From Macrostomum lignano (taxonomy: Eukaryota): DNA of 64,000 bases. Made by a program: the position numbers and the translations under genes. The stretch covers positions 17,320-81,319 of the forward strand of contig NIVC01003711.1 in the NCBI GenBank assembly GCA_002269645.1. Reading direction: 5' to 3'. Shown piece after piece: positions 1 through 39,150 of this stretch. The notes beneath the pieces were generated by a model that was not told the DNA's origin, ran no database searches, and was given only the letters and a program-made list of their open reading frames with translations. Numbering within the stretch: position 1 is the stretch's first letter; every line of letters begins with the position of its first letter.

Positions 1-1677
1 CATGCTGCAATGTCATAAAGAAAAGAGCTAATCTAATGCACTGTGGAGATACATGTATTGATACATGTACATGTAGAAACATCAGTTTTTCTCGAATAGT
101 TCTCGAGCATGAAGCTTTGAGTTCGGTTTGAGTTATGATAATCGCTTAGTGTCTGGGTGAGTCCTGCATGTCAATTTTCAGCGACAGAGAGCAAGCAGAA
201 GTACTCGAAATCGAATATCAATCTAATGCATTGTGGAGATAGGGAAGCACCAGTTTTTGGCAAATTGTAAAAAATCCTTTCAATCTGTAGCCGTAATTTT
301 TTTAAGTCGGTTTATCTCGTGGGTGATGTTTTTTCTGTAAAATTTCATGGCGTTTGGTGCTTTAAAAGCAGAGATTTTTGTTCTTTCCGAACATCGATCT
401 TGAATATTGCTCGGGGAATCCCTGCATCTTGTAACAGATTCATTTTTAGCAACAATGAAATCAGTAATAACAAAGATAGACACTAAGGTACTATGTAGTT
501 GTAATATTTGATAAAATGCCTAAGAGTAAAAGGCAAGTCCATAGAAAAATAAAAAAGGGTTTACTCAAATATCTTTGCTAATATTTTTTGGTCTCCTATC
601 ATTTTATTTTTCAAATCCCTTGTAAAGATAAGTGGCTATTTAGTTGCTATGTGGCTTTGCCAATAATAGCCCTTTCTGGTTGCAATAAATATTGCTTTTA
701 GGGACTTCTAGAAATTAAGTTATATAAATTAGTTCCAGTTTTAGTAAGATCATACTTTTGTTTTTGAGAGTGCTAATTTCAAATTTAGGCTTTGTTTCTA
801 CATTGCTTTTTTTTCAAAATTCATGTTGCCTAAAACCAGGGTATAGGGAATGGGAGCTTTAGGATTCTATGGTTATTGCCCTTCCTAGTTACAATATATA
901 TTAATTTTTTAAATAGGGCTAAGTATATTTCTCAAATACTCTTTTATCTATGCTACATAGGCTGGGTTGTTTTTTTTCGTCCATAACTTGGGTGCGATTT
1001 CGCACCCTGTGCTAGATTTCAGGGTGCGATTTTCAAGACCAGGATGCGCTGCACGTCCATAACACTAAATTGTAAAACCCGCATCACATCCTTGCAAAAA
1101 ATTGGGTGCACTTTTCGCACCCTGAGTCAAATTTCAGGGTGCGATTTTTAAGACCAGGATGCTATTCGCACCCATTCGCACAAAAAAACCCAGTACATAG
1201 GACCTGACTAGTATGCTCTTAATTTGACACTGTCTAGTACATAAATTAAAAGTTGAAAAATAAACATTTTTTTATAATTTGTTTATATTTGCTTATGCTA
1301 CTAAGTATAAGCAACAAATATACTTAGTTATAGATAGTTATTTTTATAAGATAAAATTTTACAAGAAAAGACAATTATGATGTAAGACAAATTATTATTT
1401 ATTTTAGTAAATAGCATATAACCTTAAAAATATCTGTTTGAATTCTATTAGTTGAGTTTTTTGTTAGCAGTTGCATAATAATAGAATGCATAGCTTTCTC
1501 AAACTCATCTTATATTACAGTTACATTAGGAGGCATACAATTGTATAAACAGACCAGAATCCTTCCAAGAATACATGAATACTTCTTTCATTTTTTAGAG
1601 CCTTCAATAAAAGGGATTCATTTTAATTTTTTAATATCTACTAAACTTAATAAAACAACAACCCCCACCATGCCCAG

Positions 1678-9977: not shown

Positions 9978-20980
<11,003 letters not shown>

Positions 20981-27300: not shown

Positions 27301-28736
27301 TCTATGAACATTGGGTGTCTATCAAAAAAGTGCCAAGGGTCATTCTCTAGGATATAAGAGCAATATCTAGGCCATAGACTAGATCATGCTGAGTGCATGC
27401 CCAAACAAAAATTGAATAGTTAAAAATGTACACCAAAAAATGGACCTAGATATTGCTCTCTAGACTCTAGACTCTAGTCTCTAGACCAACCTCGCACATT
27501 GTGGTTCCTTCAAAAAGAAAGCCAGTATCAAATAGTAAGAGTTCCGAGTAAATGTTATAAGATTGTTTTCCGAGTTATTCATTTGCAGAAGAGAAGTGAA
27601 GTGGCAGAGAACACATACAGTATATACTACTGAGAAGTGGAAGTAGTAAGAGACTATGAAGTAGATCCTAAATTGATACATGAAAGAATAACCAGAGGCT
27701 GTGACCCTCTGATCTCGGTAATGCCCAGGATTGGAAGTACATGCAATACATATACCAGTAAGCCAATACTGCTCAGGCCAGAATAACAGTAAACACTACT
27801 AGAAAAATAGTAAACGCTACCGGAATAACAGGAGAACAATACAAGGCGATTTCTTAGTTTCCCGCGTTAAATTATTTTTTTGCCTTTTTCAGCTGATCAT
27901 GGCCGGACGACCTCAGGCACGCCGTTTCATCGTTGACCTACACCTTCTGAGGCCCACCATTGAGCTCTGCGACCTCGACGTGAACCATCGGGAGCTGACT
28001 GTCCTCACTGGTGAGACGGGAGTGGAGTGGCTCGCTACATATGGCCTACTGCGAAATTCAATGGAGTGCCCTCATTGCGCACTACTACCCCGCTGTCTGA
28101 CATCCCTGACATCCCATCTATGGCCCCTGGACTTTTATATATGGACTTGGACTTCTTATTGCTTAATTGCTTATTGCTTGGACTTACAAAATAATTTAAC
28201 GCGGGAAACTAAGAAATCGCCCAATACAATTGTAAGGGCTAAATAGTATTCTAAGAACAATATACTCAGAAAAATTCTCAAATAGATACTCAGACAACTA
28301 CTTAGATATATACTCAGACTAATTCCAAGAAACATTTCTCAGACTTATTCTAAGATTAATAAACTCATAATTTATTAATAAAATAGTCTTGGTGGCACTG
28401 GCAGGCAGCAGCTACCAACATTAAGACATTTAACATAGAAAGAAGTATAACCCCTAGTACAACTTGGTGGCATTGTGGAATCATTTATAAAGACAGAAGT
28501 TAAGCCCTTTGACAACTTTAGTGACAGCTGTGGAATCATTTGTAGAGACAGAAGAATCAGCCCTTCGACAACTTTGGTGGCAGCTTTAGGGTATTCAATA
28601 ATAGGAATTAGAAAAGTAGCCCTACAACACTAGGCTTATTCAATTTATAATTTTAATAGAGCTCATTGTACTAAGACACAAAAAGAAACAATTTTAAAAG
28701 CCGCCAACTCACCTTCTCCTTCATTTTGCTAGTCAT
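24306..28736 (-). CDS. MLLT3: AF9/ENL-family YEATS-domain protein (MLLT3/MLLT1/ear-like, ~718 aa); exons 28736-28713 (predicted), 26842-26432, 26027-24306
   Basis: YEATS domain IKIEIEIGHWAK...THVWKVWVCG...FVERVVFQLHPTFPDPMRVVSQPPFEIEEKAFGTFPMKIELHF...FREKLIRAGG aligns by eye with AF9. The C-terminal NFDLARLRPDCVKRLIDLL resembles the AF9 AHD (FDLCSLDKTTVRKLQSYL). All junctions are phase 0 with GT/AG. The 24-nt first exon ATG ACT AGC AAA ATG AAG GAG AAG|GTGAG is inferred. Confidence 0.88.
27550..28629 (+). mobile_element. Old solo-LTR/remnant related to the adjacent gypsy LTR (left boundary unresolved), interrupted by the Merlin element, in AF9 intron 1
   Basis: 28440-28629 carries the same CCC-NNNN-ACA-ACT(T)-TGGTGGCA units and AGACAG(G/A)A spacer motifs as U5 of the full element, ending CCCTACAACA at 28629. 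No matching TSD was found. Confidence 0.6.
27845..28221 (+). mobile_element. Non-autonomous Merlin (IS1016-like) DNA transposon deletion derivative, 377 bp
   Basis: Perfect 34-bp TIRs starting GGCGATTTCTTAG (27845-27878 / 28188-28221) and an 8-bp TSD CAATACAA (27837-27844 / 28222-28229). The internal ORF from 27899 contains EWLATYGLLRNSMECPHC, resembling the Merlin transposase N-terminal CxxC region. Confidence 0.85.
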
Positions 28737-28790: not shown

Positions 28791-29528
28791 CCTATACGAA
28801 TGTGGCCTTTATAAATATAGCCTTCCTGTTAGTTAGTAGTAGAAAGAATCAAAATAATCCTGGTTCAAAATCAACTGATTAGTCATATATGATATACTTA
28901 ACTTACTGCAGTTGCGCTATGCGCGGCTCTGGCGACTCTGCAGGCCTCTGCTACTAAAAATTACGACTTCTTTGAAAAGAACTTTTTAAATGGGAGCGTT
29001 GCGTGTTTTGTTTTTTTGACATGAAGAAAAATATGGCAATCCAGTTAGGAATTCTATAATTATTAATGTTTATATTCACTTAGGCCCAGCCTAGTCTTTT
29101 TTTAATACATATAAAATACGTGTACTACTAACTTTAGATTTACTCTACTAACTGCTTCATCACAAAAATTTAAATTACACTGAAACGCTTTTTATTTGTG
29201 TACTTTATTTTTTATCGGATTCTTTACTTTTTGTCTTGTTTTATATACTATTGAGCTGACCTATACAGGTACTGTAGTAAAAAGATGCATCCGGCGTGTC
29301 CAGTAAGGTCGCTGGGCCAGTGAGGTCGGTGGGCCTGCCGCTTTTTAGCAGAGGCCCTGAAAATATTGCAAGGGGGCAAGCGAATTTTTGCCAAAATACA
29401 GTCTCACCCAGACCCACTCACTCTCACTTCTAACCTTCCGAGATACGCGCCTCATCTTACAGGTTCTGCCGACTTCTGTAGAGTAGAGCACTTCCTTTCC
29501 GAGCATATTTCATTATTTCCTATAATAT

Positions 29529-30344
29529 TGAGGCAGGCCCGATGTGTTTAATATTCACGTAACCATGATTTTAAATTTCCGCCAAACTACGCTTAACAAC
29601 GCATTTTTGTTAGAACGAAATCTTTGTTTTAATGGGTTTGTTTTATTCGGGAAAATTATTTTGTTAAACCGCTATAAAGAAATTTGTTTATTCACGACCC
29701 GCGCACCCCACCTCCCCCTTTTTGAGACTATAAATACAAGCGATTGCGGGCAATTTCCCCTTTGCCCGCCGTTTCCTCGATTCGGTCAAGAAAAGCAAAA
29801 CGTGTTGTCTTAGTCACTGGAAAGCAAGACAGGAGAGAAAGCTGTAAGAGGCCAGAAAAGCCGTAAGAGGCCAAGAAAGCCGTGAGAAGCCAGAAAAGCC
29901 GTAAGAGGCCAAGAAAAACTGTAAGAAGCCAGAAATAGACGGTTGACGAGTCGGGCAACTCCTTCCCAGGGAGCCCGCAACTAAATATAGGGAATTAATA
30001 GTAGTAATAATAATAGTAGTGAGATTCATAACTACATGTAGACCAGTGTTTGCCGCTCGACACTGCTACCAGGGCGACTTGCATAGATTCAAGGAGTCCT
30101 TAGATTAGAATTCTAGACTTGATATTTTCTAAGAAGCAGCAATTGACTAAGCAATTTTATGGAGTAATAACTATTCTAAATTACAACAACTTGATTCTGT
30201 AGTGTGATTATAAACTAAGAAGTGTATAGCCCTGGTATAACTTGGTAACAGCGGTGGGATATTAACAGACAGGAATACCCCCTAGAACAACTTGGTGGCA
30301 GCGGTGGGATATTATTAGAGAGGACAGGAGTTTCCCCTAGAACA
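29529..30344 (+). repeat. 5' LTR (TATA box TATAAATA 29729-29736; ~19-bp internal tandem 29839-29935; internal PBS copies)
   Basis: Direct repeat of 38335-39150 at offset 8806. Confidence 0.97.
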
Positions 30345-30347
30345 ACT

Positions 30348-30359
30348 TGGTGGCAGCGG
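30348..30359 (+). promoter_or_regulatory. Primer-binding site complementary to tRNA-Leu 3' end
   Basis: TGGTGGCAGCGG 3 nt after the LTR end. The reverse complement of the conserved metazoan tRNA-Leu(AAG/TAG) 3' end is TGGTGGCAGCGGTGGGATTCGAACC. Confidence 0.85.
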
Positions 30360-30393
30360 AAAGGGATTGGAATCCGACTAAGTCGACCGCTAA

Positions 30394-30493
30394 AGCAAAT
30401 AACGTGAGAGTACAGCAAATAACGTGAGAGTACAGCAAATAACGTGAGAGTACAGCAAATAACGTGAGAGTACAGCAAATAACGTGAGAGTAC
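30394..30493. repeat. Five perfect 20-bp tandem copies (AGCAAATAACGTGAGAGTAC) in the gag leader
   Basis: Copies start at 30394, 30414, 30434, 30454 and 30474; the gag ATG is at 30495. Confidence 0.95.
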
Positions 30494-30494
30494 A

Positions 30495-31397
30495 ATGGCA
30501 GCACTTAATGACGCTATAGGTTTATTAGCAGAGGAGCTTAGGAACAGGCTAGAACTAGGGCCTATGAGGCATGTAAAGATCCAAAAGTACACTCCCAGCC
30601 AGGATGTACGAATTTGGTTGACTGCATTCGATCAAAGGTGTGATCAGGAAGGAATAGATCAGGAGCACAGGAAAACTGAACTTCTAGCTAACCTAGATCT
30701 GTCAACTGCATTCGCTGCAGTACAGCGATTAAATTTACCCGAGGATTTGACGTATGAGGAATTTAAGGAGAGATTGGTGGAAAGATTTGGCCGGATTGGT
30801 AGCTCATCTGAGTGCAGAGAAGAGTTCAGAGGTAGGATGCAGGGTAGAAACGAGGCAACCGACGTGTTCGCCGATGCTTTGATCGAACTAGCAGCTAGGG
30901 CGTTCCCAAATATGAACGCAGAACAGCGTGAAGAGGAAGTAATCGAGCAATTTATCAAGGGAGTAAGAATTTCCTCCGATACCCGGGAGAAACTTATTTT
31001 TGCTCAGCCCACTAGCCTGCAGGAGGCCAGACGCATGCTTAGGAGAATAGAAGCAGCCTGGCATATGTCGCATAAGAACGGTGTCAGAGTCGTGAGAGAC
31101 GAAGATGATGAGAAGAGCAAGCTAGAAAAGCTAATTAAGCTGCAGAAAGCTGAGCTCGAAGAGCAGAAGAAGTTAATTCAGGAACTGCAAACTGAAAAGC
31201 AGCAGCAGCCGCCAGTTACTCAGACTAGGCCGCAATACTATCAGCCAAGAGTTCAGGCGTTCCAGCCACAGCTTCGCCCGCTGATGCAGCAGCAGATAAG
31301 GAGGCAGATTCCGTGGAAGCCAACACAGAATGTAGTGCGACCTGGCTTTAACAACCAGAGTCGATTCCCTGCCCGCAACCCCAATCAGGGAAACTAG
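30495..31397 (+). CDS. gag: Retrotransposon Gag (capsid-like, no CCHC knuckle)
   Basis: 300 aa ORF after the PBS. Motifs (DVRIWLTAF...LTYEEFKERLVERFG...FRGRMQGRNE...FADALIELAARAFP...EQFIKG) are typical of Ty3/gypsy capsid. Confidence 0.9.
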   Translation: MAALNDAIGLLAEELRNRLELGPMRHVKIQKYTPSQDVRIWLTAFDQRCDQEGIDQEHRKTELLANLDLSTAFAAVQRLNLPEDLTYEEFKERLVERFGRIGSSSECREEFRGRMQGRNEATDVFADALIELAARAFPNMNAEQREEEVIEQFIKGVRISSDTREKLIFAQPTSLQEARRMLRRIEAAWHMSHKNGVRVVRDEDDEKSKLEKLIKLQKAELEEQKKLIQELQTEKQQQPPVTQTRPQYYQPRVQAFQPQLRPLMQQQIRRQIPWKPTQNVVRPGFNNQSRFPARNPNQGN

Positions 31398-31461
31398 GAT
31401 TCGAGGGTCGATATTCGAGGCCACGTCCCTCTAGGAAACCCCAAAGCGAAGCTCAGGCCTC
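31388..31461 (+). promoter_or_regulatory. -1 programmed ribosomal frameshift signal (G GGA AAC plus predicted H-type pseudoknot)
   Basis: In-phase heptamer 31388-31394 immediately before the gag TAG. The -1 frame is open into pol. Stems GAGGGTCG/CGTCCCTC and GAGGCC/GGCCTC. Confidence 0.8.
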
Positions 31462-34400
31462 TCATTTCTCCCGCAAACCCGTTTTCAACCCACTCCCTGG
31501 AGGATGGCGACAAGTCCCATTTTCCAGGAATTCAATGCGTAATGCACCAATGCGTAATGCACCAACGCGTAATGCACCCATGTATAGAGCACCAATGCGT
31601 AATGCACCTGTAAACAGCGCGTCTCCCATCGCGCTATCTCCTAATATGTTTGAGTTATTGGCGTCAGAGCCCAGTGAGTCAGATGCAAAAGCATCAGCAT
31701 CCGAGTTGACAAAGTCCCCAGTGACTAAGCCAGCAAATGCAAAGCAGAAGGCGAGAAAATCTCGCAAAGCGAAATATCGAGAAGCTAAGAAAGCAGCTGA
31801 GAAAGCAAAAGTTGATTTGATAAGCGAGAAAAGTAGCGAAGCAATTGTCTTTGGAGACATTGAAGGTCAAGAAATTGACTTCTTGCTTGACACCGGAGCC
31901 GGAAACTGCTTCCTAAGCAAGTCAGTATGGTCCAAGGTGATCAAGACAGAGCAAATCCGAGAAACCAATAAGAGAGTTACCACATTTGATGGTTCCTCAG
32001 TGCAGCTAGAAGGAGAAGCTAGTGTGTCTGTAACCTTTGGAGATATCCAAATTGATACCAGCTTTTTGCTGTGCAGCTATGAATGTGATAACATTCTTGG
32101 CATGGACTTCTTCCTTTCCCACTGTAAGAGCATTGATTTAGACAATGGCATGCTTGTACTAAAAAGAGGCCTCTGTGTGCCTATGCAGTACACTCGCCAA
32201 GCAGTTAGAATTTGCCGAGTTTATACTCGAGAAAAGGCAGTAGTACCTGCTAATAGTGCATTGAGAGTTCCCATTAGGCTAGCGAAAGACCATGAGCCCA
32301 ATCATGGCACTCCTATGACAGTAGAAGTGATCGGAGAAGGCGTGAGAGCCAAGGAATTGACAGTAGAGATGGTTCCGACATTGGTCACCATGAGAGACGG
32401 CAGTGCCATCGTGGAGATCGTGAATCGACACTCTGTCGACGTGAGACTGCCGAAGTCGACATTGATTGGTCTGGCCAAGCCCATGAGAGCCAAGGACCTC
32501 GTCTACTGGTCAGCATCGCCTTCCGCCGCCGAATCAGCTTCGCCGACAATTGCCGAAGATGCCGCACAACCCGCCGGACGTGTCAATCAAGCTCAGGCAA
32601 CTGAAGATGCTTGGGTGAGCGAAATTAGTATTGGTGCCGATTTATCTGAAAGTCAGCGAAAAGCAGTAATTGATCTCGTGAGAGAGAATAGAGAAGCATT
32701 TTCCCAGCATGATTTAGACATGGGATTGACTCATCTAGTCACTCATGAAATTTCCCTGAAGGACGAGACCCCTGTTAGAATCCCTACCCGCCGCATCCCC
32801 CCTCATCTCCAAAAGCAAGTCGACGCCCAGCTAGACGACATGCTAGCTAAGAATCTCATCCGCCCCTGCTATTCTACCTATTCTACCCCATTAGTCATTG
32901 TGCCAAAGAAGGATGGCACCATCCGAATAGTGAGTGATTTCCGAGTGCTCAACTCTAGAGTTAACTATTTTCCCTATCCCCTCCCCAATATTCAAGAAAC
33001 TTTTTCTAATCTTACTGGCAGTAGGTACTTTAGTAGTTTAGATCTTAACTCAGGTTATTGGCAAGTGCCTATAAAGGAAGAGCATAAGTTCATGACCGCG
33101 TTCTCTACTTTGACGCGAGGACAGTTTGAGTACCAGGTTATGGCGCAAGGGTTATCCAACGCGCCCGGTACATTTCAAAGACTGATGAACTTAGTGCTAG
33201 CCGGAATCCAGCATAAGTTTGCAATGTCGTATATTGACGATATAGTTACTTACTCGAAGCAATTTGAGGAGCATTTATCCCATCTAAGAGAGGTGTTTCA
33301 GAGATTGATCACCGCAGGTTTAAAGTTGAGAGCGAAAAAGTGCAACTTATTTCACTCTGAACTCAAGTATCTAGGCCATGTGATAGGTAGAGATGGCATT
33401 CGCACAGACGAAGCCAAGATTGAAGCCATTAGAACCTGGCCAAAGCCAAAGGAAGTAAAGGAATTGAGAAGCTTTTTAGGATTGTGCAATTACTACAGCA
33501 GATTTGTCAAAAATTATGCTGAAGTAGCGCATCCTCTTTTCCAACTGACTCGTAAGGGAGTTCAAAACTTCCAAGCAAAATGGACAGCAAAGCATGATGA
33601 AGCGTTTGAGCTATTGAAAACCCGTATGATGAGTACTGACGTGTTAGCATACCCTGAGTTCATAGACAATGAGAAGGTGAAGATGGTTCTCGATGTAGAC
33701 GCCAGTGATGGACGCATAGGTGCCTGTTTAGGACAAATCCAATCAGACGGTGTCGAGAGACCAATCGCCTACTTTAGTCGCGCTATGAAGGAGTCAGAAA
33801 AACGCTATCCCATAACTCGCAAGGAGTTGCTAGCTCTAGTAGATGCCATGAGGCATTTCCGCTTCTATCTAATAGGAAAGAAATTTCTAGCTAGGACCGA
33901 CCATAAGGCTATACTTTGGTTATTAAGGCAGACAGAAGCCCAGGGCATTTTAGGCAGATGGATTGAGCGCCTCAATGAATTTCAATTCGAAATCGAGCAT
34001 AGGAGTGGCGCGAAACATTCAAATGCCGATAGCTTGTCCCGAAGGCCAGCCGAGGCTGCCCAGCCAGATTGTAAAGCCAATGAGAAGGCGGAAGCCGAGA
34101 AGAAGAATCAAGAGATGAGCGAAATCCCCAGCAAAGGCGTAAGAGCCGAAGTGAACCAAAAGATAAGCGCAGATAAAGAGAAGTATATCCCCAGCGAACG
34201 CGTGTGTGCACAGCAGAACCAGAATGGGAAGGCTAAGGACAGCATAAGCAATCTGACCCAGCCCCCCACTGAGCAGAGAGAGGGAGAGACCAACCCCCCC
34301 CCCCCCGAGTCACAGAGGAGCAAAATAGTCTCTGGTGAGAAGAGTGTAAGGATTGACAGTGTGAAAACACAGAGCTCCTGCGTTATGCAATCGAGCAGAG

Positions 34401-34591
34401 TCACCCCACAATCTGAGCACAGTGAGGAGTATGGCACGCTGAAGGTTGGAGCATTATTAGTTGACTTCCTACCTAACCCCCTGCGGAGAGAGCAGATTAT
34501 TAATGCCCAGCGCGAAGACCCCAATATTAGTACTTTGCTGAGTTGCAAGCTTGAAGAAAAAGAACCCCCCCGCCGAGCAAAAGAGCATTAG
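31394..34591 (+). CDS. pol: Pol: aspartic protease, reverse transcriptase, RNase H (entered by -1 frameshift; ORF track starts at 31535)
   Basis: FLLDTGAG (PR); SLDLNSGYWQV, QGLSNAPGTFQR and SYIDDI (RT); VLDVDAS, KELLAL and RTDHKAI (RNase H). Confidence 0.95.
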   Translation, partial: LGFEGRYSRPRPSRKPQSEAQASHFSRKPVFNPLPGGWRQVPFSRNSMRNAPMRNAPTRNAPMYRAPMRNAPVNSASPIALSPNMFELLASEPSESDAKASASELTKSPVTKPANAKQKARKSRKAKYREAKKAAEKAKVDLISEKSSEAIVFGDIEGQEIDFLLDTGAGNCFLSKSVWSKVIKTEQIRETNKRVTTFDGSSVQLEGEASVSVTFGDIQIDTSFLLCSYECDNILGMDFFLSHCKSIDLDNGMLVLKRGLCVPMQYTRQAVRICRVYTREKAVVPANSALRVPIRLAKDHEPNHGTPMTVEVIGEGVRAKELTVEMVPTLVTMRDGSAIVEIVNRHSVDVRLPKSTLIGLAKPMRAKDLVYWSASPSAAESASPTIAEDAAQPAGRVNQAQATEDAWVSEISIGADLSESQRKAVIDLVRENREAFSQHDLDMGLTHLVTHEISLKDETPVRIPTRRIPPHLQKQVDAQLDDMLAKNLIRPCYSTYSTPLVIVPKKDGTIRIVSDFRVLNSRVNYFPYPLPNIQETFSNLTGSRYFSSLDLNSGYWQVPIKEEHKFMTAFSTLTRGQFEYQVMAQGLSNAPGTFQRLMNLVLAGIQHKFAMSYIDDIVTYSKQFEEHLSHLREVFQRLITAGLKLRAKKCNLFHSELKYLGHVIGRDGIRTDEAKIEAIRTWPKPKEVKELRSFLGLCNYYSRFVKNYAEVAHPLFQLTRKGVQNFQAKWTAKHDEAFELLKTRMMSTDVLAYPEFIDNEKVKMVLDVDASDGRIGACLGQIQSDGVERPIAYFSRAMKESEKRYPITRKELLALVDAMRHFRFYLIGKKFLARTDHKAILWLLRQTEAQGILGRWIERLNEFQFEIEHRSGAKHSNADSLSRRPAEAAQPDCKANEKAEAEKKNQEMSEIPSKGVRAEVNQKISADKEKYIPSERVCAQQNQNGKAKDSISNLTQPPTEQREGETNPPPPESQRSKIVSGEKSVRIDSVKTQSSCVMQSSRVTPQSEHSEEYGTLKVGALLVDFLPNPLRREQIINAQREDPNISTLLSCKLEEKEPPRRAKEH

Positions 34592-36197
34592 CTCAGAATT
34601 TAAGCAGTTGGGCAAATCCTACGAGAAAATGAAAATCGAAAGCGATATGCTTGTTATTGAAGAAGAAGGAGTAAGCAAAATTGTGTTGCCAGTGTCGCTG
34701 GACAAATTAGTGCTGGCTGATCTACACGATAGCCCACTAGCAGGACACTTGGGTCGTGACAAGACAGTGCAAAGAGTTAGGGAGAGATTTTGGAGACCCG
34801 GCTTAGTGACAGCCATTGAGAAGTACATATCTGAGTGTATTCCGTGTTTGGAAAGCAAAAGAGGATGCCCTGTTCAGGCTCCAGTGCAGTCATTCCCAGT
34901 CAACGAGGCATTTCATCGCCTACATATCGATATCATAGGCCCCATTTCGAAAGAAAGCAAGAGAGGCCATCGTTATGTACTGACTGTAATTGATAGTACT
35001 ACCCGCTACCCATTCGCGTTCCCGATCCGTAATCAGAAGTCTGATACCGTGATCAAGATCTTACAGGAGCGAATTTTCAGTGAATATGGTCAATGCCATT
35101 GGATACATACTGACAATGGGAAAACCTTCACAAGCAGACAGTTTAAAGCGTTTTGCGAAGCATACAATGTCAAGCACACCTGTACCACCCCGTACCATGC
35201 CCAAAGTAATGGCTTGGTAGAGAGGTTTAACAAGCAAGTGAAATCCATCATTACCTGTTTAATTAAGAAGGACCATAGCAATTGGGATTTAATGATCCCA
35301 GCAGCGCTTGTTGCAGTGCGCACTAGTGTGAATCAAACCACAGGCTATTCACCCCATTTCCTGTTATTCGGAAGGGAGCCAGTTTTGCCACTAGACAGTC
35401 AAATTCGCCAGCCAAATCAGTACTCAGGCTATCCAGCCTATGTCGCAGATCATGCCGAAAGGCTAGAAATTGCCAGAAAAATCGTGAGAGATAAGCTCGA
35501 GAAAGTTGCTGATAATAGAAAGAATATTGCTGAAACAGCCAAGCAGCCTAAGGAAGTACCAGTAGGGAGTTTAGCGTTATTAAATAACCCGCAGTTAGAC
35601 AATGAGGAGTCTAACAAATTTCACAGAAAGAAGAGAGCCGCCTATAGAGTGATCGAACAGATCTCAGATGTAGTGTTTAGAGTGCAGAAAGAAGAGGATG
35701 GTGAGCTTGTAGGGAATAAATTATTAGTGCATAGGGACAATTTAACACTAGTTCCTAATTCGACCGCAGAATTACCAATTAAGGGAAGCCAGCAGGAGAG
35801 GCACCGGAAGAAAAATCAGTCAAGGAGGGAACCTAAAGCTAAGGGAAGCCACCCGCCGAGGAAGCATAAGGAGATAGTGATTAGTGAAGAGTCTGAGTAT
35901 GACACTGAATCTGAGGATGAGCGAGTGCAATGGCAATGCCAAATGAGAGAGTCCGAAACGGAACCAGCAACTGAGAGCGAAGATGAGAGCCAAGAGTCAG
36001 AGAGTGCGGTAGAAGAAGGAGGAATAATGAGCAATGCAGAAGACGCCAGAGAGAACAATGAGATTGAGCATGAGCACGAGGAAGCTAATTCAGAGAGGAG
36101 ATACAATACACGCAGGCAGGTCAGGCCCCCCAAGTGCTATTGTTGCTTGAAGCGGCTGGCCACTGTGCTGTCTTTGTTGAACAATCTCAGTTTCTGA
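34551..36197 (+). CDS. pol: Integrase portion of pol, offset +1 from RT-RH at a C7 run
   Basis: HHCC (LHDSPLAGHLG...CIPC) and DDE (LHIDIIGP, HTDNGKTF, SNGLVERFN), with an acidic tail ending RRYNTRRQVRPPKCY. Confidence 0.92.
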   Translation: MKKKNPPAEQKSISSEFKQLGKSYEKMKIESDMLVIEEEGVSKIVLPVSLDKLVLADLHDSPLAGHLGRDKTVQRVRERFWRPGLVTAIEKYISECIPCLESKRGCPVQAPVQSFPVNEAFHRLHIDIIGPISKESKRGHRYVLTVIDSTTRYPFAFPIRNQKSDTVIKILQERIFSEYGQCHWIHTDNGKTFTSRQFKAFCEAYNVKHTCTTPYHAQSNGLVERFNKQVKSIITCLIKKDHSNWDLMIPAALVAVRTSVNQTTGYSPHFLLFGREPVLPLDSQIRQPNQYSGYPAYVADHAERLEIARKIVRDKLEKVADNRKNIAETAKQPKEVPVGSLALLNNPQLDNEESNKFHRKKRAAYRVIEQISDVVFRVQKEEDGELVGNKLLVHRDNLTLVPNSTAELPIKGSQQERHRKKNQSRREPKAKGSHPPRKHKEIVISEESEYDTESEDERVQWQCQMRESETEPATESEDESQESESAVEEGGIMSNAEDARENNEIEHEHEEANSERRYNTRRQVRPPKCYCCLKRLATVLSLLNNLSF

Positions 36198-36235
36198 GTG
36201 GAGGAGAAGGAAGGAAGGAGAAGGAGGAGTGAGAG

Positions 36236-36468
36236 CCAATGAGAGGAGGCGTAGAAGTGAAGGGATTTCGAGGCCGTGGATAGGAGGAGAGAGGCGAAGA
36301 GACCGACAGCCAATAAGGAAGAATCATCAGCCAATGAGAGAAGACCTGCCATTTAAACAAATAATTGTTTGTTTGAATAAGCTTGAAACATGATGCCCCC
36401 CAAAGTGGAATGTTTGCAAACCTATATAAGCGAGATCCCTGACGCAATCAGTTCCTCATCCTCAACAG
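36236..36468 (+). promoter_or_regulatory. Internal promoter signals (3x CCAAT, TATA, Inr) overlapping a branch point/acceptor upstream of ORF3
   Basis: AGCCAAT(G/A)AG with CCAAT at 36236, 36310 and 36331; TATATAA 36423-36429; TCAGTT 36448-36453; CTGAC 36439-36443; pyrimidine tract plus CAG ending 36468. Confidence 0.6.
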
Positions 36469-36523
36469 AGCAATAAGGCAGCAATTAAGTAGCAATAAAG
36501 AAGCAGTCAAGAGCAAATCCGTT

Positions 36524-37966
36524 ATGAATAAAGAAAACGAAGAGTTAAATATTTTAGCAGACGGTAGTGAATTTGACGATCTATTAAAAGAGCTTGAAGG
36601 GCCTTGGCCCATGCAGCAAGATGAGCAAACTGAGCAACCAGAGCCAGAGCGTTCAGCGCAGCAAAACGAGCAAGAACAGCTAGCTGAGGCTCCGTCGCAG
36701 CCGCCTGCTACGCAGCAGCCTGCTCCGACGCTGGCACCGCCGTCAGAGCCATTACGGGAGCGTCAGTCAGCTGACCTGCCCGGGCCCTCGCAGCCACCGG
36801 AGCCCTCCACCAAGCCAAAGCGACCTGCTGCAGAAACGGATCAGGGTACACAAGCGAAGAGGCCGGCCCCGTCAAGGCTGCCAGTGTCCCAGGATCCGGC
36901 AGCAAGACAGGAGCTCGTTAGAGTGAAGTCGGTGCAGTCCGTGGTGGTAAAACCGACGGTTATGCAGAGGCACCCGGCTGGCGCGCGGCCCACACTGATG
37001 TTAGCTGCCCCGCCTCAGCAGCAGCGGCCGGCTCAGCGGTCGCAGCCTCGACGTGTGGCGTCGCGAGCAGAAGTCCGACAGCAGCTGCCAGTGCACCGCA
37101 GGCTGGCTCCGCGGCCGCCGCCGCAGCAGCGCCGGCAGTCGCCGCCGCAGCGCCGCCACCAGTCTCCGCCACGGCACCGCCACCAGTCGCCGCCGCAGCG
37201 CCGCCACCAGTCTCCGCCGCAGCACCATCAGCAGCCACCGCCGTCTCAGCCTCATCAGCAGCCACCGCCGTCTCAGCACCATCACCAGTCTCCGCCGCAG
37301 CACCATCAGCAGCCACCGCCGTCTCAGCCTCATCAGCAGCCACCGCCGTCTCAGCACCATCAGCAGCCACCGCCGTCTCAGCCTCATCAGCAGCCACCGC
37401 CGTCTCAGCACCATCAGCAGCCACCGCCGTCTCAGCACCATCAGCAGCCACCGCCGTCTCAGCATCATCAGCAGCCACCGCCGTCTCAGCATCATCAGCA
37501 GCCGCCACCGCAGACTGCAGTGCCACCACAGGCGTCAACCTGCCGTGCAGCTGCAAGTTATTTGTTCGCCCCCGGCAACCAAGACATCCAAAGGCTTGCT
37601 GCGATGGGCGCCGACTTCAGCGCCATCATGGACGGTTTGTCGCCAGAACAGCAGGCAAGAATGAAGCGACTGATTGCTGCCCTGAAGGAGTATCTAATGC
37701 GAATCGGCCACTTGCGGTTGGACCGGCCGCTGCCACAGCGGGCCCAGGTCCGGCCAGCCTGCATTGTGCTTCGCCAAGAATTCACGCCTGAGCAAGCTGT
37801 CGCGGCTTGGCGCCGCGCCGTGAATTACGTACTTCATGACCTGAATGCGGCTGGCCAGCCGTACTTTCGCACGCTGCTTATCATAGAGATTAAGTGGCTC
37901 GCCGAGCAAGTCGGATGGCCTCTACGCGACCTTTTGCCGGACGAATTTAATCTGAATGATAATTAG
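36524..37966 (+). CDS. Accessory ORF3 of the retrotransposon, unknown function, not env-like (480 aa)
   Basis: Intact ATG-to-TAG ORF between INT and PPT. It has an acidic N-terminus, a QPPPSQHHQ repeat core and a ~140-aa predicted-helical C-terminus, with no visible signal peptide or TM segment. Confidence 0.8.
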   Translation: MNKENEELNILADGSEFDDLLKELEGPWPMQQDEQTEQPEPERSAQQNEQEQLAEAPSQPPATQQPAPTLAPPSEPLRERQSADLPGPSQPPEPSTKPKRPAAETDQGTQAKRPAPSRLPVSQDPAARQELVRVKSVQSVVVKPTVMQRHPAGARPTLMLAAPPQQQRPAQRSQPRRVASRAEVRQQLPVHRRLAPRPPPQQRRQSPPQRRHQSPPRHRHQSPPQRRHQSPPQHHQQPPPSQPHQQPPPSQHHHQSPPQHHQQPPPSQPHQQPPPSQHHQQPPPSQPHQQPPPSQHHQQPPPSQHHQQPPPSQHHQQPPPSQHHQQPPPQTAVPPQASTCRAAASYLFAPGNQDIQRLAAMGADFSAIMDGLSPEQQARMKRLIAALKEYLMRIGHLRLDRPLPQRAQVRPACIVLRQEFTPEQAVAAWRRAVNYVLHDLNAAGQPYFRTLLIIEIKWLAEQVGWPLRDLLPDEFNLNDN

Positions 37967-38334
37967 GTGACTATAATTGAACTGTCATGTACTGTTATTT
38001 TTTCGCATTGCATGCATACCTATTTAGCCTTCACTAATTTGCATGGATACTTATTTAGCCAAAATTCTTGTGTGCTCAACTTTGTGCAACTTTATATTTA
38101 GCCAAACATCTTTTTGTACGCTCAACTTCGTGCCATTTTAATAATAGCCAACCTTGCTCAATTCTTCCACTAACTATATTACTGATATTACCATGTTGTG
38201 TGCTGTTTTAATGTTTTAGTGTCAGCCAATTTTATCTAGTGCCTACGTTTTGTGATTAAAAGCCCCTTTTGCACTTTAACTACACATTTATTCACTCACT
38301 AGTTTATTCATAAATATGTAGAAGGGAAGCCAGT

Positions 38335-39150
38335 TGAGGCAGGCCCGATGTGTTTAATATTCACGTAACCATGATTTTAAATTTCAGCCAAACTACGCTT
38401 AACAACGCATTTTTGTTAGAACGAACTCTTTGTTTTAATGGGTTTGTTTTATTCGGGAAAATTATTTTGTTAAACCGCTATAAAGAAATTTGTTTATTCA
38501 CGACCCGCGCACCCCACCTCCCCCTTTTTGAGACTATAAATACAAGCGATTGCGGGCAATTTCCCCTTTGCCCGCCGTTTCCTCGATTCGGTCAAGAAAA
38601 GCAAAACGTGTTGTCTTAGTCACTGGAAAGCAAGACAGGAGAGAAAGCTGTAAGAGGCCAGAAAAGCCGTAAGAGGCCAAGAAAGCCGTGAGAAGCCAGA
38701 AAAGCCGTAAGAGGCCAAGAAAAACTGTAAGAAGCCAGAAATAGACGGTTGACGAGTCGGGCAACTCCTTCCCAGGGAGCCCGCAACTAAATATAGGGAA
38801 TTAATAGTAGTAATAATAATAGTAGTGAGATTCATAACTACATGTAGACCAGTGTTTGCCGCTCGACACTGCTACCAGGGCGACTTGCATAGATTCAAGG
38901 AGTCCTTAGATTAGAATTCTAGACTTGATATTTTCTAAGAAGCAGCAATTGACTAAGCAATTTTATGGAGTAATAACTATTCTAAATTACAACAACTTGA
39001 TTCTGTAGTGTGATTATAAACTAGGAAGTGTATAGCCCTGGTATAACTTGGTAACAGCGGTGGGATATTAACAGACAGGAATACCCCCTAGAACAACTTG
39101 GTGGCAGCGGTGGGATATTATTAGAAAGGACAGGAGTTTCCCCTAGAACA
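38335..39150 (+). repeat. 3' LTR
   Basis: Direct repeat of 29529-30344, preceded by the purine tract AGAAGGGAAG. Confidence 0.97.

Follow-up and report, generated by a model that had tools for sequence, protein, structure and literature searches.

A candidate internal promoter for a third gene in a young Ty3/gypsy retrotransposon of Macrostomum lignano

Internal promoters in described retroelements and the element carrying ORF3

LTR retrotransposons are usually taken to depend on the promoter in their LTR and on host factors. Among the closest described systems with a second promoter are the Oikopleura elements Tor3b and Tor4b, in which env is transcribed from the internal promoter Penv, as demonstrated by 5' RACE, northern blot and reporters or LTR-less constructs, while the sister element Tor3a uses splicing instead (PMC4402516). 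Similar to Tor3b and Tor4b, the Macrostomum lignano element described here is of the Ty3/gypsy type and has a third open reading frame in sense orientation, ORF3, whose putative internal promoter would lie, as in Tor4b, in the intergenic space after pol. In contrast, the Tor third ORF encodes a transmembrane Env glycoprotein, which ORF3 does not, and the Tor promoter was shown by experiment whereas that of ORF3 is deduced from sequence (PMC4402516). Foamy viruses likewise combine an internal promoter with the accessory product Tas/Bel2, Tas regulating viral transcription, and, as proposed for the ORF3 element, their internal promoter precedes accessory ORF(s) adjoining the 3' LTR (PMC7828637); however, they are Retroviridae with an env, whereas the ORF3 element is Ty3/gypsy. 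In maize, gene23 of Grande, an accessory gene of a Ty3/gypsy element, lies between pol and the 3' LTR and, as proposed here for ORF3, has its own promoter and encodes a nuclear protein, but gene23 and the additional ORFs of plant elements are antisense and plant-specific (PMC7264820), and no homology of gene23 to ORF3 was detected. The ORF3 arrangement would work like the Tor, Grande and foamy virus systems but does not appear to be a member of their families, and since an internal promoter for a third ORF is already known in Ty3/gypsy elements, it is the cargo rather than the mechanism that is new. An internal Pol II promoter for an accessory gene had been called unusual for Ty3/gypsy in a preliminary description of this DNA, a fair remark although Tor3b/4b env and Grande gene23 are precedents with promoters of their own; Tor was the only animal Ty3/gypsy precedent found in our literature searches. 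If true, there would be few parallels in animals for a second promoter that drives a non-Env gene, conserved and fast-evolving, in dozens of young copies. Moreover, M. lignano is open to transgenesis, and LTR reporters as well as 5'-enriched RNA libraries exist for it (PMC5730564, PMC12801592), which makes the promoter and a possible transactivator function of ORF3 testable together.

The element lies in a stretch of 64,000 nucleotides (the window; Table 1) and is a young Ty3/gypsy LTR retrotransposon with LTRs, a primer-binding site, presumably of the tRNA-Leu type, a polypurine tract, a target-site duplication and the order PR-RT-RH-INT. Among solved structures its reverse transcriptase (RT) is closest to Ty3 (Ty3-G Gag-Pol, E 1e-41, versus 1e-22 for foamy virus RT), and its two LTRs show 4 differences. 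In this copy the integrase is separated from the rest of pol into a second frame, the split falling near 34542-34591. The U3 of the 5' LTR contains repeated TTTGTT words. No canonical heat-shock element (HSE) was found within the window's element, and five motifs looked for in the HSE-family supplement of PMC12801592 were not present in it. Several repeats were observed in and around the element: tandem 19-bp units in the LTR (29836-29935), 50-55-bp units at the end of the LTR in which PBS-like sequence recurs (30230-30359), and five 20-bp units before gag (30391-30494), each with a donor-like GTGAG. On the same strand, degenerate copies of the 50-55-bp units are also seen ahead of the element (28440-28606) and may be what is left of an older related LTR. 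Further upstream lie a small MITE-like element whose inverted arms, perfect over 34 nt, are 309 nt apart (27845-28221) and a long array of 18-bp tandem repeats (about 17400-19700; 111 registers listed).

Table 1. Features of the ORF3 element in the window, and the solo ORF3 cassette
Feature	Position	Strand	Basis or remark
5' LTR (TG...CA)	29529..30344	+	LTR comparison; 4-bp target-site duplication just before, 29525-29528
TATAAA inside 5' LTR	29729	+	sequence
Primer-binding site	30348..30359	+	sequence
gag	30495..31397	+	weak PF03732 match, E 0.015
Protease, RT, RNase H	31352..34591	+	domain matches; best PDB matches include Ty3 Gag-Pol
Integrase with acidic tail	34542..36197	+	domain matches
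Pure-purine run, 30 nt	36200..36229	+	sequence; after integrase stop
Three AGCCAAT (NF-Y-type) boxes	36234, 36308, 36329 (span 36234..36335)	+	sequence; CCAAT cores at 36236, 36310, 36331
Inverted AAACAA/TTGTTT pair	36355..36370	.	same word enriched in LTR U3; motif defined post hoc
TATATAA with conserved downstream block including CTGAC	36423..36445	+	best-conserved island of the intergenic DNA
CTGAC	36439-36443	+	sequence; within the TATA-downstream block
TCAGTT (Inr-like)	36448-36453	+	A at 36450, 27 nt after first T of TATA
Two candidate start sites, A36450 and A36458	36448..36458	+	CA-dinucleotide recurrence; predicted
Pyrimidine run and CAG	36452..36468	+	CAG at 36466-36468; acceptor-like, not kept beyond near family
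ORF3, 480 aa	36524..37966	+	open reading frame after integrase
ORF3 acidic N-terminus	36524-36643	+	composition
ORF3 Q/P/H-rich repeats (linker)	about 37063-37539	+	composition
ORF3 conserved helical C-terminal domain	37589-37963	+	conservation, predicted fold
3' polypurine tract	38320..38329	+	sequence
3' LTR	38335..39150	+	LTR comparison; 4-bp target-site duplication just after
Solo cassette	L092:4459-5169 (G000:C846:44212-44565; also C3012, C2203)		clade B TATA module and ORF3 C-terminal domain

Promoter-like and acceptor-like motifs between integrase and ORF3

Upon rechecking, the motif positions given in the preliminary description were all borne out. When positions 36198-36524 were subjected to 5000 dinucleotide shuffles, three AGCCAAT boxes recurred in a fraction of 0.0002 and three RRCCAAT in 0.0016, the TATA and Inr spacing in 0.0002 (strict) to 0.003 (loose), and three RRCCAAT together with TATA and Inr in 0/5000, although these p-values are optimistic because the patterns were picked after viewing the sequence. 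A branch point plus AG was found in 0.21 of the 5000 shuffles, and adding the pyrimidine tract reduced this to 0.016, so that the splice reading of the motifs is weaker in the shuffles than the promoter reading. These and the comparative data below suggest that ORF3 is probably driven by an internal RNA polymerase II promoter and not by splicing. The three CCAAT boxes and the TATA box would form this promoter, NF-Y binding the former and TBP the latter, and the ORF3 mRNA would be unspliced, with its start about 27-35 nt downstream of TATA and its end likely in the 3' LTR, which would supply its poly(A) end. In the window's family the promoter would act independently of the LTR. Support for the promoter comes from the motifs, from the fixed spacing at which they recur in diverged families, from an ATG-free leader, from purifying selection on ORF3, and from a cassette that is kept without pol or LTRs.

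Within the near family, nine copies of the region with 84-100% identity were available, and TATATAA, TCAGTT and CAG are kept in 8/9. The exception is L009, the 84% sister copy, with TATTTAA, TCAGGC and a CAG displaced 2 nt downstream; another copy (L008) has lost the middle CCAAT. For diverged relatives, the 36/41 stretches with a recognisable ORF3 start (L040, L058, L073, L077 and L079 being left out) were reduced to 16 groups at 70% identity across the upstream 300 nt, and one representative each was compared with 400 shuffles; the resulting figures are descriptive, since the groups are related and the search windows were fixed after viewing the data. TATAWA was present at -115..-65 from the ORF3 ATG in 7/16 groups (shuffle mean 0.84, 0/400 reaching 7), although it was also raised further upstream in AT-rich stretches (7/16, shuffle mean 3.17, 8/400), and AGCCAAT occurred at -330..-140 at 10 sites over the 16 groups (shuffle mean 0.62, 0/400). 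Against the promoter reading, RCCAAT is also frequent in gag-pol, at 2.0 per kb over 15 elements, the promoter window having 3.5 per kb. In clade A, to which the window belongs, CCAAT boxes and TATATA were found in 4/4 groups, with the nearest CCAAT 72-92 nt upstream of TATATA. The consensus Pol II promoter has CCAAT at 60-100 nt and TATA at about 30 nt ahead of the start. This layout is kept in position at the motif level, both elements occurring jointly in clade A only; canonical TATA was absent from the search window in 9/16 groups, and in clade C only TAAATA-like variants, at differing distances, are found there. Where intergenic regions could otherwise not be aligned, the best-scoring local matches were the AGCCAAT block and the TATA block. 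The purine-rich block ahead of AGCCAAT is also present in L042 and L045. In addition, L041 and L042 carry CCAAT in both orientations, as expected of a DNA site rather than of an RNA signal. From TATA+25 to the ORF3 start codon, 18/21 elements are free of ATG, while 1-6 ATGs precede the TATA in 21/21. Two positions with a recurrent CA dinucleotide correspond to the predicted starts in the window, namely +26..28 from TATA (6/9 groups, background 0.28; A36450) and +34..37 (22/24 TATA-bearing elements; A36458). When 17 further element-type stretches were inspected, they were mostly of the same families or truncated and hence not a held-out test; the only new intact family, L095, has the TATA module.

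The preliminary description had placed a splice or trans-splice acceptor on top of an internal promoter with an Inr. The comparison backs the promoter at the motif level, where TATA and AGCCAAT recur, but neither the exact Inr TCAGTT nor the superimposed acceptor. TCAKTY was found in 1/16 groups (shuffle mean 1.1), as was the exact TCAGTT; branch point plus AG (6/16, shuffle mean 4.9), pyrimidine tract plus AG (4/16, 2.9) and the trans-splice acceptor motif [CT]TNCAG at -100..-6 (2/16, 2.3) are likewise at chance level. It therefore seems unlikely that the ORF3 mRNA is cis-spliced from an LTR transcript onto the CAG at 36468 in the manner of an env. This route is used by Tor3a (PMC4402516), and it would accommodate the presence of CTGAC, an 11/12 pyrimidine run and CAG in the window, the donor-like GTGAG/GTAAG words in the LTR and 5' leader, and the sister copy L009, which changes the window's AG yet has a CAG 2 nt further on. 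CTGAC itself occurs in 3/16 groups (shuffle mean 0.83, 20/400 shuffles), but the block holding it stays at a fixed distance from TATA and reads CAGAG, TAGAG or CTGAG in other elements, variation of a kind that a branch point would not tolerate. Moreover, cis-splicing leaves the conserved TATA and CCAAT boxes unexplained.

Assembled contigs over 29590-36939, from three runs presumed to be RNA (X1, X2 and X3) and one of unstated kind (X16), count weakly against an abundant spliced form, as contigs cannot show starts or levels. Neither splice joints nor clustered starts were found among the listed contig pieces of the four runs, although contigs drop rare forms, and none of the 15 loose ends listed falls at 36469. 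An X1 contig (from 35952) and an X2 contig (from 36031) bridge integrase, promoter and ORF3, which is what genomic RNA or DNA would give; since both run through, the end of one X3 contig at 36460 was given no weight.

The absence of a listed end at 36469 also speaks against spliced-leader (SL) trans-splicing, by which ORF3 would be cut from the genomic RNA in an operon-like manner. About 30% of M. lignano genes are trans-spliced (PMC8629364), but we consider this route very unlikely for the window, whose site at 36468, CAACAG, does not fit the acceptor motif of the species, [T/C]TNCAG (PMC8629364). The reading draws more from clade B, where 5/7 TATA-less elements have TTTCAG at the would-be TATA start versus 0/12 TATA-bearing ones, a contrast that comes from two lineages only. 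In the TATA-less clade B families L059, L064, L065, L074 and L104, TTTCAG lies about 100 nt before the ORF3 ATG and matches the SL acceptor motif (PMC8629364). A switch from promoter to trans-splicing in these lineages would be possible.

Lastly, the motifs might be the passive remnant of a captured host promoter or of a replication signal (a central polypurine tract), with ORF3 translated from genomic RNA or hardly at all. The bridging contigs presumed to be RNA and the 30-nt purine run after the integrase stop are compatible with such a remnant. However, the motifs persist where the flanking DNA is unalignable, the purine run differs from the 3' polypurine tract, several ATGs lie upstream of TATA, and ORF3 is under purifying selection, all of which make this explanation quite unlikely relative to an active internal promoter.

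Spread, evolution and possible role of ORF3

ORF3 is a real, clade-wide gene. With its last 141 residues, 150/150 scored candidates matched out of 278 candidates in the genome, giving at least 150 matches, and most of the 40 matches taken as 10-kb stretches were gag-pol-ORF3 elements; these stretches had been picked by long open frames and a spread of scores, a choice biased towards intact copies. Purifying selection was shown by comparison of the window with L040, in which 66 synonymous and 24 nonsynonymous codon changes were counted in 141 codons. An ORF3 profile matched 7 of 1.84 billion protein representatives, the last (E 6e-4) probably spuriously; 6/7 look like true members, and the 5/7 that are named all come from M. 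lignano. One representative, P0001, is identical to the ORF3 frame of L071, while another, P0002, shares at most 46% identity with anything in the genome (G000), so that the family is likely present in another species as well.

In trees of 25 elements, clades B and C were recovered with both RT plus integrase and ORF3, whereas clade A had weak support in the former and was not a clade in the latter. Between L064 and L072, synonymous divergence (pS) is 0.028 in RT but 0.66 in ORF3, which is far more diverged, and whereas gag-pol is 95-100% identical, the stretch that begins with the promoter and takes in ORF3 and the LTR is about 45-55% identical. This pattern indicates that a putative ORF3-LTR module was exchanged between gag-pol backbones by recombination, although linkage alone would make ORF3 and the LTR travel together. 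The pairs with gag-pol 90-100% identical and ORF3 and LTRs about 50% identical are L064 with L072 and L075, and L046 with L060.

The predicted protein shows no relation to described families in the collections searched. Pfam returned 0 families for the whole ORF3 and, for 25 members, four single-member matches at E about 0.02; the best E in a PDB sequence search was 0.1, and the Atlas gave no usable match. Foldseek of the C-terminal domain against PDB and BFVD gave nothing at E 0.001, and in the VIA fold comparison the best Z was 7.2, so that all scores stayed below 8 and in the range of generic helical bundles. Word-index protein searches yielded 0/307 and 1/8000 candidates, and 0/10 exact ORF3 sequences were present in the protein collection. 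No published description of ORF3 or its promoter was found in our literature searches, and the accessible main text of PMC12801592 does not contain 'ORF', 'internal promoter' or 'splic'. An Env identity was ruled out, since ORF3 has no transmembrane or other hydrophobic segment (maximum KD19 0.68), signal peptide, N-glycosylation site or Pfam match.

The product is likely a nuclear regulator. Its first 40 residues in the window include 13 D/E and 2 K, and an acidic N-terminus was found in 35/35 other ORF3 starts (7-19 acidic versus 0-8 basic residues). Bulky hydrophobic residues interspersed in an acidic stretch are typical of acidic activation domains, and the ORF3 N-terminus has such residues. 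The Q/P-rich linker contains a KPKRP cluster, and the C-terminal 125 residues, for which five helices are predicted (pLDDT 92.6), are basic in 25/25 rows (+1 to +9). This anatomy of acidic activation tail, disordered linker and basic helical domain tentatively suggests that ORF3 could be a transactivator, while the main alternative is an adaptor with an anti-silencing or other host-interacting role. The likeness to foamy virus Tas lies in this activator-like anatomy, transactivation by ORF3 being putative, and searches of Pfam, PDB sequences, Foldseek PDB/BFVD and VIA brought up no match to Tas. The acidic domain of Tas is C-terminal, and Tas binds both viral promoters; in ORF3 the acidic part is N-terminal. 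A candidate site for a factor common to the internal promoter and the LTR is the AAACAA/TTGTTT pair of the window. The motif TTGTTWWA, defined post hoc, is enriched in the LTR U3 of clade A (12 against 0.7) and clade B (9 against 0.8); in the internal promoter the same post hoc motif is enriched in clade A (4 against 0.3) but not in clades B and C (0 and 1). Binding by a host protein, for example of the Forkhead type, would fit equally well.

Elements without pol and the solo cassette

Seven of the 40 stretches contained elements that lack pol while retaining LTRs, a gag remnant and ORF3. In six with intact ORF3 (L059, L066, L067, L069, L071 and L074), about 640-880 nt upstream of the ATG align with autonomous partners, although the upstream region may have been kept only through linkage to the 3' end. 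Non-autonomous elements of 5-7 kb (LTR, diverged gag remnant, ORF3, LTR) were seen in L059, L066, L067, L069, L071, L073, L074, L100 and L103-L105, and many of the pol-less elements have LTRs that are 99-100% identical.

Moreover, one ORF3 copy, the solo cassette, stands outside any recognisable element. It was recovered in L092-L094, which represent one locus on three contigs with flanks 95-98% alike, and is intact in all three; a protein of 118 aa (P0005) maps to the same locus on the three contigs. In the 30 kb around it (C846), no match to gag, PR, RT, RNase H, integrase or LTR was found, and it matches the elements only at the TATA module (L092:4459-4671), in the clade B and not the window's version, and at the ORF3 core, the acidic tail and the linker being absent. 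The cassette nests in clade B (100/99) and was thus likely derived from an element rather than being the donor. Its protein corresponds to the NCBI gene model BOX15_Mlig026206, from an annotation built from RNA-seq (PMC5730564), which suggests that it may be expressed without an LTR, although the gene model could stem from host-promoter read-through. Four gene ids looked up for expression were absent from the accessible supplements of PMC12801592, PMC5816591 and PMC7806878. The LTR-less host copy is a possible case of domestication, and the interest of the system lies mostly in this copy and in the uncharacterised ORF3 family.

Taken further, these data might describe an independent foamy-like circuit, which we regard as doubtful: the internal promoter would drive a new helical transactivator that binds a TTGTT-type site in its own promoter and in the LTR, promoter-ORF3-LTR modules would be swapped between near-identical gag-pol backbones, some lineages would have replaced TATA by a trans-splice acceptor, and the host-kept LTR-less copy, lacking the activation tail, would be a possible dominant-negative brake. 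Near the solo cassette, a peroxiredoxin-like host gene (L112:3222-3905, minus strand) and one resembling an ETS-domain factor (L113:4877-6271, minus strand) were noticed by eye.
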